NCBI RefSeq assembly: GCF_030013205.1
Contig: NZ_CP122648.1
DNA: 64,000 nucleotides
Direction: 5' to 3' (one strand)
Origin: Escherichia coli
Lineage (GTDB): Bacteria > Pseudomonadota > Gammaproteobacteria > Enterobacterales > Enterobacteriaceae
Shown here: positions 1 through 7,929 of the stretch, in pieces
Layout: every line of letters starts with the position of its first letter
Numbering within the stretch: the first letter of the stretch is position 1
The notes under the pieces: generated by a model
Told to the model about the DNA's origin: nothing
The model's input: only the letters and a program-made list of their open reading frames with translations
The model's database searches: none
Translations under genes and position numbers: made by a program

Positions 1-906
1 CGATTCAAAAAGCGGGGACAGAATGATGCATTCCGCTACCCGCAGGGCGTTAAGCTCGATCAGGAAAACAGCCGTATTTTTCTGCCGAAACTGGGCTGGA
101 TGCGCTACCGGAATAGCCGTCAGGTCACGGGTGTTGTGAAAAATGTCACGGTCAGCCAGTCCTGCGGTAAGTGGCACATCAGTATTCAGACAGAAAGTGA
201 AGTATCAACTCCGGTTCACCCTTCAGCATCAATGGTCGGGCTGGATGCTGGCGTGGCTAAACTCGCCACGCTGTCAGATGGCACAGTCTTTGAGCCTGTA
301 AACAGTTTTCAGAAAAAACAGAAGAAGCTGGCGAGACTTCAGCGACAGTTAAGCCGCAAGGTCAAATTCAGCAATAACTGGCAGAAGCAGAAACGCAAAA
401 TACAGCGACTGCATTCCCGTATCGCAAATATCCGCAGGGACTACCTTCATAAAGTCACAACGACCGTCAGCAAAAACCACGCAATGATAGTCATTGAGGA
501 TTTGAAGGTCAGTAACATGTCAAAGTCAGCAGCGGGTACGGTCAGCCAGCCGGGGCGCAATGTCCGGGCAAAATCAGGTTTAAACCGTTCGATACTGGAT
601 CAGGGCTGGTATGAAATGCGCCGCCAGCTTGAGTACAAGCAGCTCTGGCGTGGCGGTCAGGTGCTTGCTGTTCCGCCAGCGTACACAAGCCAGCGTTGCG
701 CGTGCTGTGGTCATACAGCGAAAGAAAATCGCCTGTCACAAAGTAAATTCAGATGCCAGGTATGTGGATATACAGCGAACGCCGATGTAAACGGCGCTCG
801 TAACATTTTAGCGGCGGGGCACGCCGTTCTTGCCTGTGGAGAGATGGTGCAGTCAGGCCGCCCGTTGAAGCAGGAACCCACCGAAATGATTCAGGCGACA
901 GCCTGA
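1..906 (+). CDS. tnpB: IS200/IS605-family TnpB (OrfB) RuvC-like nuclease, 5'-truncated by window edge
   Basis: Frame is open from base 1 to stop at 906; translation shows TnpB hallmarks (IEDLKVSNM RuvC-II segment, C-terminal CxxC...CxxC zinc ribbon followed by DVNGARNI). Recognised by eye, no search run. Confidence 0.85.
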
Positions 907-945
907 ACGTAGCAGGGAGCCTCGTCATTCAGGGCGTGGAGGATG

Positions 946-1338
946 TCAAGCTGATTCATCTATGTCGAGACGAGCAAGGAAATGACGAATTCCTTCGCGT
1001 GACAAAAATTGCGCAACTTTTTCCTGCTCACTGTGAGTCATGTTGTCTATTGCGCTGATGATTTGCCGATAAGCAGGAGTGCGAATCCCCGGTGCGTATT
1101 CGGCAAGGGGTTCTTCGGCTTCCAGAAGCATCGGCGTGTTATGGAAGGCTGGCGTGTTCTGAATAAACTCGCAAACTTGCGTATCGACCAGAATAAGTCT
1201 GGCACGACCGCCTTTCACGCCGGGAAATTTTTCCGTTTTCCAGCCTTTTTCTCTGATCCAACGGTTAACAGTTTGTTTAGCCACACCGAGGCATTCAGCC
1301 AGTTCTTCGGTGGTCATTTTATTGCGTAATCTTTTCAT
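946..1338 (-). CDS. yfeD: YfeD-like small DNA-binding protein (paralog of YfeC)
   Basis: 130 aa ORF; N-terminal HTH-like segment (TTEELAECLGVAKQTVNRWIREKGW) paralogous to the adjacent ORF; matches remembered K-12 yfeD. Confidence 0.8.
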   Translation of the reverse strand: MKRLRNKMTTEELAECLGVAKQTVNRWIREKGWKTEKFPGVKGGRARLILVDTQVCEFIQNTPAFHNTPMLLEAEEPLAEYAPGIRTPAYRQIISAIDNMTHSEQEKVAQFLSREGIRHFLARLDIDESA

Positions 1339-1339
1339 A

Positions 1340-1699
1340 TTATTTGCTATCGCGAATCCCTAAGCGTTGTAACAATCCGATAATCCCTTCCCGCAGAAGC
1401 AAGGATGTAAACTGTTTTTGTTCAACTGGCGTCATCTCTTTCGCCAGTGTCACCAGCAATACTTCAAGCGGCGCATCACCAGAAAGGGCAGGCGCTTCTC
1501 CCTGACCTTCTGGACGTTCAGCATTGCGAATATATTCACGAACCTGTTCATTGACGTGAACCAGTCGGGCTTTGCCACCCTGGACGCCAGGTTTTGGTGA
1601 CGTTGTCCAGCCTTCCTTGCGTACCCATTTATTAATGGTCTGGCGGCTATAGCCGGTCAGTCTGGCAAGTTCATCTGGCGTCATCCTCTCCTTGAACAT
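1340..1699 (-). CDS. yfeC: YfeC-like small DNA-binding protein
   Basis: 119 aa ORF, HTH-like N-terminus (TPDELARLTGYSRQTINKWVRKEGW); tandem with yfeD; start codon may be internal. Confidence 0.8.
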   Translation of the reverse strand: MFKERMTPDELARLTGYSRQTINKWVRKEGWTTSPKPGVQGGKARLVHVNEQVREYIRNAERPEGQGEAPALSGDAPLEVLLVTLAKEMTPVEQKQFTSLLLREGIIGLLQRLGIRDSK

Positions 1700-4430: not shown

Positions 4431-5142
4431 GTGCACAGAAAACCCCCAGCTAGGCTGGGGGTTCCGGAAAGCTTTCAGCTTTGAGCCAGTTATTAAAACC
4501 CCTTTTGATTTGTTAAAACACCTTGCGGTCTGGCAACTGCAAGTGTCAAACAAGAAATCAAAAGGGGGTCCCAATGGGGAACGAAAAGAGCTTAGCGCAC
4601 ACCCGATGGAACTGTAAATATCACATAGTTTTTGCGCCAAAATACCGAAGACAGGTGTTCTACAGAGAGAAGCGTAGAGCAATAGGCAGTATTTTGAGAA
4701 AGCTGTGTGAGTGGAAAAGCGTACGGATTCTGGAAGCTGAATGCTGTGCAGATCATATCCATATGCTTGTGGAGATCCCGCCCAAAATGAGCGTATCCGG
4801 GTTTATGGGATATCTGAAAGGGAAAAGCAGTCTGATGCTTTACGAGCAGTTTGGTGATTTGAAATTCAAATACAGGAACAGGGAGTTCTGGTGCAGAGGG
4901 TACTACGTCGATACAGTGGGTAAGAACACGGCGAAGATACAGGATTACATAAAGCACCAGCTTGAAGAGGATAAAATGGGAGAGCAGTTATCGATTCCCT
5001 ATCCGGGCAGCCCGTTTACGGGCCGTAAGTAACGAAGTTGGATGCAAATGTCAGATCGTGTGCGCCTGTTAGGGCGCGGCTGGTAAGAGAGCCTTATAGG
5101 CGCATTTGAAAAACCTCCGGCTATGCCGGAGGATATTTATTT
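4431..5142 (+). mobile_element. IS200 copy 1 (IS200/IS605 family, tnpA only, ~712 bp)
   Basis: Near-identical (about 5 mismatches) to a second copy at 30213-30923; encodes a 152 aa HuH Y1 transposase; ends with hairpin cctccggctatgccggagg; boundaries +/- 5 bp. Confidence 0.85.
4574..5032 (+). CDS. tnpA: IS200 transposase TnpA (HuH Y1 transposase)
   Basis: MGNEKSLAHTRWNCKYHIVFAPKYRRQ... 152 aa with the conserved HxH motif (ADHIHML); start placed at the internal Met of the listed ORF. Confidence 0.9.
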   Translation: MGNEKSLAHTRWNCKYHIVFAPKYRRQVFYREKRRAIGSILRKLCEWKSVRILEAECCADHIHMLVEIPPKMSVSGFMGYLKGKSSLMLYEQFGDLKFKYRNREFWCRGYYVDTVGKNTAKIQDYIKHQLEEDKMGEQLSIPYPGSPFTGRK

Positions 5143-5152
5143 ATGTATGGTC

Positions 5153-6355
5153 TTACAGCACCAGTGCTGCGATTGACGCAGACAGCACACTCACCAGGGT
5201 AGAGCCGTAAACCAGTTTCAGACCGAAGCGAGAAACCACGTTACCTTGCTCTTCATTCAGGCCTTTAACTGCACCTGCGATAATCCCGATTGAAGAGAAG
5301 TTAGCGAAGGAAACCAGGAACACAGAGATGATGCCTTCAGCACGCGGAGAGAGCGTGGAAGCAATTTTCTGCAGATCCATCATCGCAACGAACTCGTTGG
5401 AAACCAGTTTGGTCGCCATGATACTGCCCACTTGCAGTGCTTCACTGGAAGGAACACCCATCACCCATGCAATCGGATAGAAGATGTAGCCCAGGATGCC
5501 CTGGAAGGAGATGCTGTAGCCAAACCAGCCAGTAACGGTGGCAAACAGTGCGTTCAGCGCGGCGATCAGGGCGATAAAGCCGATCAGCATCGCGGCAACG
5601 ATAATGGCAACTTTGAAACCTGCCAGAATGTATTCACCCAGCATTTCGAAGAAGCTCTGACCTTCGTGCAGGTTGGACATCTGAATGTTTTCTTCACTGG
5701 CATCAACACGGTAAGGGTTGATCAGCGACAGCACGATAAAGGTGCTGAACATGTTCAGTACCAGCGCCGCAACGACATATTTCGGCTCCAGCATGGTCAT
5801 GTATGCACCAACGATGGACATCGACACGGTGGACATCGCCGTTGCTGCCATGGTGTACATACGATTGCGGGAGATTTTGCCGAGGATGTCTTTATAGGCA
5901 ATAAAGTTTTCAGACTGACCCAGAATCAGGGAGCTGACGGCGTTAAAGGATTCCAGTTTGCCCATGCCGTTGACTTTGGAGAGCAGGAAACCAATTGCGC
6001 GGATAATCACCGGCAACACGCGAATGTGCTGGAGAATACCGATCAGTGCAGAGATAAAGACGATTGGGCACAGCACTTTCAGGAAGAAGAATGCCAGGCC
6101 TTGATCATTCATGCTACCAAAGACGAAGTTAGTCCCTTCGTTGGCAAATCCGAGCAGTTTTTCGAACATTTCGGAGAAGCCTTTCACGAAGCCTAAACCA
6201 ACGTCGGAGTTCAGGAAGAACCACGCCAGTAACACTTCGATAACAAGCAGTTGAATAACATAACGGATACGAATTTTTTTGCGGTCGCTGCTTACCAGCA
6301 GTGCGAGAATCGCAACAACGGCAAGTGCCAGTACAAAATGAAGGACGCGGTCCAT
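5153..6355 (-). CDS. nupC: Nucleoside:H+ symporter NupC
   Basis: ORF 5153-6394; start placed at [13 protein letters not shown]... to give 400 aa as remembered for NupC; polytopic membrane protein. Confidence 0.9.
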
Positions 6356-6623
6356 ATTTGCTCCAAATATGAGGCAGGTTAAATTTCCGTGCACATTCTA
6401 TGTAACATGGTTAAGGAAAACGAGATCTGACACACACTATAATGACGTCCTGTGACCAGCTTCAAAAATAGTGAGCTGTCATACATTTCTGCTATGTTGT
6501 GTATGGAAGCTGAAAGTTATGTAAATGTGCTAACATTAAACATAACCATAACATTCAAGTCATCAATCTTTTCGTAGTCATAATCCTGGTCTATCAGAGA
6601 AATCACCACAACCCATTTAAATG

Positions 6624-6678
6624 AATTTGATAATCATTCTCGTTTGGTATAGCATGAAACATAGCAAAGGCTATGTTT
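6624..6678 (+). promoter_or_regulatory. mntH control region: Fur-box-like site (aatttgataatcattctcg) and MntR palindrome (aaacatagcaaaggctatgttt)
   Basis: Fur-like site at 6624-6642; inverted repeat AAACATAGC-N-GCTATGTTT at 6657-6678, 13 bp upstream of the mntH ATG. Confidence 0.6.
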
Positions 6679-6681
6679 TAG

Positions 6682-7929
<1,248 letters not shown>

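Follow-up and report, generated by a model that had tools for sequence, protein, structure and literature searches.

An IS609 element between gltX and yfeD of Escherichia coli with an intact tnpB and a conserved, putative ωRNA scaffold at its right end

Elements of the IS200/IS605 family are excised as single-stranded DNA by a Y1 transposase, TnpA, and the transposases of this family bind subterminal hairpins. At the donor site, once emptied, a complex of TnpB and an ωRNA recognizes TTAT plus the sequence matched by the guide and cleaves the DNA, after which recombination with the sister copy restores the element. Nuclease-dead exapted relatives of TnpB are known. The ISDra2 guide RNA contains a pseudoknot in which a loop within the 'AAG' motif's Gly codon pairs with the bases immediately 5' of the guide (PMC10097598). 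An IS609-type orthologue has been purified with its ωRNA (PMC12781874, Nucleic Acids Res 2026); the protein came from a metagenomic contig (94.279, percent identity, versus IS609) and was used with the TTAT target motif, a 20-nt guide and a 206-nt 'IS609 ωRNA scaffold' that ends in GGAGGAUGUCAA and is homologous to positions 744-949 of the window, by which we mean the whole 64,000-nucleotide stretch of E. coli DNA analyzed here. That study compared trans-cleavage only, and another orthologue proved the most active and was preferred. RAGATH-18 RNAs form the guide-RNA core of IS607 (serine-recombinase) TnpBs and lie wholly outside the tnpB coding sequence (PMC11061315, Cell Res 2024). In K-12 mutation-accumulation lines, IS609 contributed 0 of 758 new insertions, and a literature search on insQ/TnpB in E. 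coli returned nothing relevant.

Positions 1-949 of the window are the right-hand 949 bp of IS609, a 1748-bp member of the IS200/IS605 family. The reference was the K-12 RefSeq feature labeled 'insertion sequence:IS609' (1748 bp), and identity to this K-12 copy is ~98% (98.1% over query 46-1800); copies at further E. coli sites show ~98% identity over the whole element as well. The best explanation of the locus, to which we assign a probability of about 0.9, is that IS609 inserted 3' of TTAT between gltX and yfeD and encodes an intact tnpB together with an ωRNA scaffold at 803-949. The computed part of this explanation comprises the identity of the element, its ends, the target motif, the catalytic residues and a conserved + strand RNA structure; transcription and processing of the ωRNA, the length of the guide and nuclease activity are what we infer.

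Window positions 1-1400 are 100% identical in 17 complete E. coli genomes, mostly pig-derived, and one of these, NZ_CP062203.1 (hereafter L001; window position equals L001 position minus 6000), has gltX on the left, a divergent tnpA pseudogene at 5265-5690 and tnpB at 5698-6906. The sequence-only reading had attributed TnpB to an IS200/IS605 element whose left end and tnpA lay outside the window. Both statements are borne out: extension leftward through the identical genomes recovers the whole of tnpB, the divergent tnpA and a left end at L001 5202, and the element, ~98% identical to the annotated K-12 copy, is IS609. The features of the family are all present, namely a Y1 (HUH) tnpA, a fixed tetranucleotide target, subterminal hairpins and near-identity to IS609. 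The gltX/yfeD site is filled in 501 of 5426 complete E. coli genomes and contiguously empty in 4811, while each genome matching the window lineage carries a single IS609 copy. IS609 and its TnpB are an already known, catalogued and ordinary element, and PGAP annotates the yfeD-site insertion in hundreds of genomes.

The ends were defined by comparing seven independent sites: gltX/yfeD, yajI, yeaR/yeaQ, ydcL/ydcO, yfaY/yfaV, yedK and a TetR gene. All seven read TTAT, then CCGGTGCG...GGAGGATGTCAA, then unrelated flank, and in its longer form the left terminus that follows TTAT is CCGGTGCGCC at 7/7 sites. Because these boundaries are shared by all seven sites, the right end is placed at window 949 and the left end at L001 5202, giving a length of 1748 bp. 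The 3' tail GGAGGATGTCAA occupies 938-949 on the + strand, with the boundary between 949 and 950; it terminates nearly all of 31 relatives, two of which differ by 1-2 bases, and unrelated flank follows in every one. No further copy of this tail was found within the 64-kb window. The target is TTAT on the 5' side of the element, and the seven sites show neither target duplication nor terminal inverted repeats. These insertion sites agree with the TTAT motif used for the IS609-type TnpB in PMC12781874. The consensus subterminal hairpins are CCCCGTCC-TTCA-GGGCGGGG on the left and CCACGTCC-TTCA-GGGCGTGG on the right.

The empty site reads TTTAT followed by G/TCTGATTC (TTTAT-GCTG in K-12 and TTTAT-TCTG in strain 7/2, the hyphen marking the insertion point); in full, the K-12 site is ccgTTTTTTATTTAT followed by GCTGATTC, and that of strain 7/2 is ...ATTTAT followed by TCTGATTCATCTATG. 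Other filled alleles, such as that of O157:H7, have a left flank exactly equal to the empty-site flank, and the window lineage carries a small T-run variant there. The assignment of about 800-945 to an ωRNA and right end in the sequence-only reading was essentially right, in that a structured RNA spans 803-949, but the right end lies at 949 and not at ~945, as seen at the seven sites and in the 31 relatives.

On its right side the element reaches into a host gene. The yfeD ORF lies on the minus strand at 946-1338, followed by yfeC and one tRNA-Ala. Insertion took place inside the last codon of yfeD, and the final TCAA of IS609 supplies the wobble base of the Ala codon and the TGA stop (946-948, minus strand; TCA on +). 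Since Ala codon and stop are restored by these bases, the YfeD protein is unchanged from K-12. The stop codons of tnpB and yfeD are 39 bp apart, matching the distance of about 40 bp noted earlier, but the element itself overlaps the yfeD stop. In three of the seven cases the insertion lies at the extreme 3' terminus of a convergent gene, whose TGA is formed by the TCA of GTCAA (window 946-950 for yfeD, L005 2152-2155 for K-12 ydcO and L008 2149-2152 for yedK). The insertion also parts yfeD from a bidirectional terminator that it shared with gltX.

Further into the window, one tRNA-Ala(GGC) gene is located at 1920-1995; K-12 (alaX, alaW) has a tandem pair spaced by ~40 bp, as does K_EC180, a strain that matches window 1-1400 at every base. 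Recombination between the repeats probably removed one copy. A 169-aa ORF at window ~4523-5032 (+), between pdeA and nupC, corresponds in position to an intact IS200C tnpA at L001 10689-11147, and thus a second transposase gene of the IS200/IS605 family would lie ~3.6 kb from the right end of IS609.

The 3' 302 codons and the stop of tnpB (insQ) occupy 1-906 on the + strand, where frame 1 is open throughout up to the TGA at 904-906. The full gene encodes 402 aa and starts 302 nt left of the window. The end at 906 had been read correctly from the sequence alone, but the apparent loss of its 5' part merely reflects where the window begins, the 402-aa gene being complete in the 17 identical genomes. 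The protein matches, in order, the Pfam families HTH_OrfB_IS605, OrfB_IS605 (1.1e-34) and Cas12f1-like_TNB (2.3e-24), scores 387.9 bits against NCBIfam guided_TnpB (cut-off 100), and matches the ISDra2 TnpB structures 8EXA/8H1J over residues 3-372 with an E-value of 1.7e-56. Alignment with ISDra2 TnpB places RuvC residues D183 (244-246), E267 (496-498) and D363 (784-786), all on the + strand, opposite D191, E278 and D361, respectively. The RuvC motifs, in which the sequence-only reading had considered inactivating mutations, are therefore conserved at all three catalytic positions. The four cysteines of the CxxC...CxxC zinc finger (C334, C337, C353 and C356; 697-708 and 754-765, +) are present as well. 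Judged by its sequence, this is an intact gene for an RNA-guided endonuclease, a genuine TnpB that would be active as a nuclease.

An open tnpB of 402 aa is found in 11 of 11 sampled copies, with pairwise dN/dS of 0.11-0.47. The window tnpB carries no private substitution, every residue being found in at least one other E. coli-type copy; some yfeD-site copies in other genomes have a frameshifted tnpB. In synonymous distance, the window gene is separated by a dS of 0.023 from the copies at yeaR and yajI but by 0.054 from that of O157:H7, which shares its yfeD site, a pattern that hints at recombination or conversion among IS609 copies or among strains. Among relatives, a dip in synonymous differences is present at window 418-507 (tnpB codons 241-270), with 0.21-0.25 versus ~0.4-0.5 elsewhere; it surrounds RuvC motif II, far upstream of the ωRNA, and codon bias, an internal promoter, an RNA element or chance are possible causes.

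The divergent tnpA ORF (L001 5205-5690) matches the full Pfam Y1_Tnp profile (1.3e-38), contains the motifs HVHLL and SPGYF, and matches the IS608 and ISDra2 TnpA structures at ~1e-17 to 1e-18. In the window lineage it is a pseudogene with an in-frame TGA at codon 96 (L001 5403-5405). The identical TGA (GVSGR*LRRD) is shared by copies at three different sites, those of the window lineage at yfeD, of K-12 at ydcO and at yedK, but codon 96 of the O157:H7 copy, also inserted at yfeD, encodes Leu. The sharing suggests that copies underwent gene conversion, that a defective one was mobilized in trans or that the mutation recurred. The tnpA frame of IS609 has no stop inside the element and continues via the left-end hairpin into the flank (L001 5202-5264 onward), so the C-terminus of TnpA differs at every site. 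PGAP calls tnpA a pseudogene in every copy examined, all with a 'missing C-terminus', and 8 of 14 have an internal stop or frameshift.

The putative ωRNA scaffold is 147 nt long (803-949, +), covers the entire non-coding right end plus the final 34 codons of tnpB, and its 3' end coincides with the element boundary at 949. A scan of one genome per species yielded 63 loci, of which 31 distinct sequences align to window 740-949, and the structure was derived from RNAalifold and explicit pair counts. Standard pairs fill 95% of pair cells in the 31 relatives, and 17 pairs show two-sided changes, rising to 27-28 when more distant relatives are added. This covariation was matched by none of 500 shuffles, and slid controls gave 36-49% pairing. 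Conserved G-U pairs are abundant (for example, U-G in 32/32 and in 31/32 sequences), and the structure is assigned to the + strand, that of tnpB, because of them. Across 16 full-length relatives, synonymous differences fall from ~0.4-0.5 over tnpB to 0.21 at codons 371-390 and 0.12 at codons 381-400, while amino-acid differences increase over the same last ~30 codons, a combination that is the signature of an overlapping constraint on the nucleic acid.

An independent covariance model, R1, was built from 24 relatives with all Escherichia and Citrobacter copies left out. Its single match in the 64-kb window is the full-length 803-949 segment on the + strand (149.9 bits, E 8e-36), a result that answers the proposal of a covariance-model search in the sequence-only reading; the RNA candidate exceeds chance, since this independent model matches only 803-949. 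R1 also recovers distant relatives in Photorhabdus, Klebsiella, Cupriavidus and Conchiformibius. From this comparative evidence, 803-949 can be described as a conserved structured RNA and a predicted ωRNA scaffold, which would be transcribed and bound by TnpB. Folding of the 147-nt window sequence alone is no better than that of shuffles (z -1.3), and its minimum free energy structure disagrees with the comparative structure in the middle region; covariation is relied on because the single-sequence fold cannot be distinguished from shuffles. In an Rfam scan at a permissive E-value no family reached threshold and no ωRNA family was matched. Membership in RAGATH-18 was rejected, the match reaching 25.4 bits against a gathering threshold of 44.9 (E 0.08) and having 17 nt in place of the 44 positions at the center of the model. 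A promoter and terminator scan found no σ70-like promoter on the + strand in or upstream of the region.

The comparative structure contains seven local helices, all on the + strand. Helix 1 (811-816/822-827) carries the loop GGGCA (817-821), and its closing pair 816:822, with both bases at codon wobble positions, occurs as G-C (16 sequences) or A-U (14). Helices 2 (833-837/870-874) and 3 (841-848/857-863) are the outer and inner parts of a two-part stem-loop, 833-874, the outer part resembling RAGATH-18 below threshold and the inner part showing compensatory changes. Helices 4 (881-882/915-916), 5 (886-888/908-910) and 6 (892-895/902-905) build the stem-loop 881-916, which has a fold z-score of -3.8 and holds the tnpB stop codon; pair 886:910 alternates between A-U (16 sequences) and G-C (12). 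Helix 7 (919-925/934-940) is the terminal hairpin, 919-940, which covaries in relatives and is at once the last stem of the ωRNA and the subterminal hairpin of the right end.

Two arrangements are available to the tail. In a candidate pseudoknot the loop GGGCA (817-821) faces the tail UGUCA (944-948), with 818-821 and 944-947 being 99.2% paired; in the nested alternative proposed by RNAalifold, 803-808 with 941-946 is 97-99% paired, and compensation is present. The two are mutually exclusive, and the nested pairing accounts for the alignment just as well as the pseudoknot. Among distant relatives, two (L054 and L036) favor the pseudoknot, one (L050) favors the nested helix and one, Conchiformibius L057, supports both, its pseudoknot being compensated as GGAAG with CUUC. 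The predicted guide of 16-20 nt, GCTGATTCATCTATGTCGAG, lies at 950-969 (+) in the host DNA next to the element, antisense to the end of the yfeD coding sequence, and in the empty site this sequence directly follows TTAT; it was predicted from the right-end boundary and from the 16-nt (ISDra2) and 20-nt (IS609) guides in use. A terminator-like hairpin with a T-run is found at window 997-1014 (+), 48 nt past the right end and inside yfeD in antisense orientation, and could be the end of read-through transcripts carrying the guide.

These features lead us to propose a model whereby the ωRNA would derive from the tnpB transcript or from read-through, with a 3' guide taken from the flank at 950 to ~965-969, GCTGATTCATCTATGT.... 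The predicted target of the TnpB-ωRNA complex would be TTAT joined to GCTGATTCATCTATGT, a combination that exists only at the emptied donor site, where a cut would favor restoration of the element by recombination. The element is predicted not to target itself because the guide match in the filled locus is preceded by GTCAA and not by TTAT.

The state of the present copy has to be weighed against this model. Relative to K-12, its terminal hairpin carries T919G, A922T and C926A; T922 and T937 are mismatched, two of the seven pairs are broken and the loop is enlarged. The folding energy of the hairpin as RNA is -7.3 kcal/mol, no better than shuffles, versus -15.4 in K-12 and -17.7 in Pantoea, and as DNA it is -1.7 versus -7.7 kcal/mol for consensus copies (z -3.1). 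The left-end hairpin has a G-to-C change in the window lineage (A in K-12, G in most copies), and the covariance-model score is the lowest of ten E. coli copies (149.9 versus 157-167.5 bits). With its tnpA stop and its mutated left- and right-end hairpins, the IS609 copy in this strain is almost certainly immobile. Formation of a TnpB-ωRNA complex is uncertain in this copy, whose guide RNA has perhaps lost its function, at odds somewhat short of even. The locus could then be a dead relic, in which tnpB is open, the ωRNA no longer folds or binds, tnpA is dead and the only effect is on the 3' end of yfeD. The damage to both hairpins, the TGA at tnpA codon 96, the presence of IS609 as a sole copy in the matching genomes and its inactivity in K-12 are what such a relic would show. 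On the other hand, tnpB is intact and free of private substitutions, of the seven local helices six remain intact here, as do both candidate tail pairings, and the CCTCGTCA hairpin variant also occurs at the yeaR site (L004), so it may have been mobile or is tolerated. We consider a dead relic a substantial possibility, if a little less probable than its opposite.

The conserved pairing might also represent single-stranded DNA signals for TnpA, that is, a recognition hairpin and guide sequences for the cleavage sites, and not an RNA. The hairpin at 919-940 does resemble the left-end hairpin, with the same TTCA loop, it covaries, consensus copies of it fold as DNA with the energy and z-score given above, and hairpins of this kind are bound by IS200/IS605 transposases. 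The covariation, however, extends ~140 nt into the coding region and includes six further helices for which TnpA biology has no need, the conserved G-U pairs would be weak as DNA and become C-A on the opposite strand, and the ISDra2 and IS609-type scaffolds from the same position are published guide RNAs; moreover, the terminal hairpin can carry both roles. A purely DNA-level origin of the pairing is thus very improbable. Hardly more credible is the retention of tnpB for a role independent of TnpA, whether by domestication or for strain-to-strain homing, with a yfeD-antisense guide or read-through RNA as a possible regulator. The contrast between the 11 intact tnpB genes under dN/dS of 0.11-0.47 and a tnpA flagged as a pseudogene in every copy would fit such a role, as would the three sites where the element lies at the 3' end of a convergent gene and supplies its stop codon. 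Yet the RuvC site is intact, unlike that of the nuclease-dead exapted relatives, some yfeD-site copies have a frameshifted tnpB, and a low dN/dS is also expected from the recent spread of an active master copy. That selection keeps the TnpB-ωRNA pair despite the broken tnpA, through homing or a host effect at convergent 3' ends, with the two tail pairings acting as a switch between mRNA and guide RNA, is a speculation that we would call unlikely, if marginally less so. The preferred reading remains an IS609 insertion with an intact tnpB and a conserved ωRNA scaffold.

Beyond correct annotation the significance of this locus is small, as the element, its TnpB, the IS609-type scaffold and the target motif were already known. 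The analysis gives a comparative structure for an ωRNA subgroup that has no Rfam family and exact coordinates for the right end, the ωRNA scaffold and the predicted guide. It also documents an effect on a host gene, IS609 having replaced the stop codon and the shared terminator of yfeD.

The closest known system is the K-12 copy of IS609 (insQ b1432, tnpA pseudogene yncK b4578; RefSeq mobile element 1503161-1504908), which is the same element, ~98% identical over 1755 nt. Like the window copy, it is 1748 bp long, has the ends CCGGTGCG...GGAGGATGTCAA, a TTAT target and a TGA at tnpA codon 96, and supplies the stop of its convergent neighbor, ydcO. It differs in its site, ydcL/ydcO versus gltX/yfeD, in a right-end hairpin without T919G, A922T and C926A, and in the left stem, which has A where the window copy has C. 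The scaffold of PMC12781874 has the terminal hairpin CCCCGUCC/GGGCGGGG, unlike the window copy. ISDra2 TnpB of Deinococcus radiodurans (PDB 8EXA, 8H1J, 8BF8) is a full-length homologue in which the D-E-D triad and zinc finger are conserved (E 1.7e-56). In both elements the guide RNA shares sequence with the 3' end of tnpB and with the right end, and a terminal hairpin with a UUYA loop precedes a ...UCAA tail. The putative pseudoknot partner of IS609, a predicted and not a solved pairing, falls in the 'AAG' motif, in the same Gly codon as in ISDra2. ISDra2 recognizes TTGAT instead of TTAT, and its scaffold of 116 nt has four stems, whereas that of IS609 measures ~140-147 nt and includes the extra stem-loop 881-916. 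RAGATH-18 (Rfam RF03064; PMC11061315) is, like the putative IS609 RNA, a guide scaffold for TnpB nucleases, and window 833-876 matches its outer stem and the conserved GGAG...GAAGCAGGAA bases; the relation is one of resemblance, not membership.
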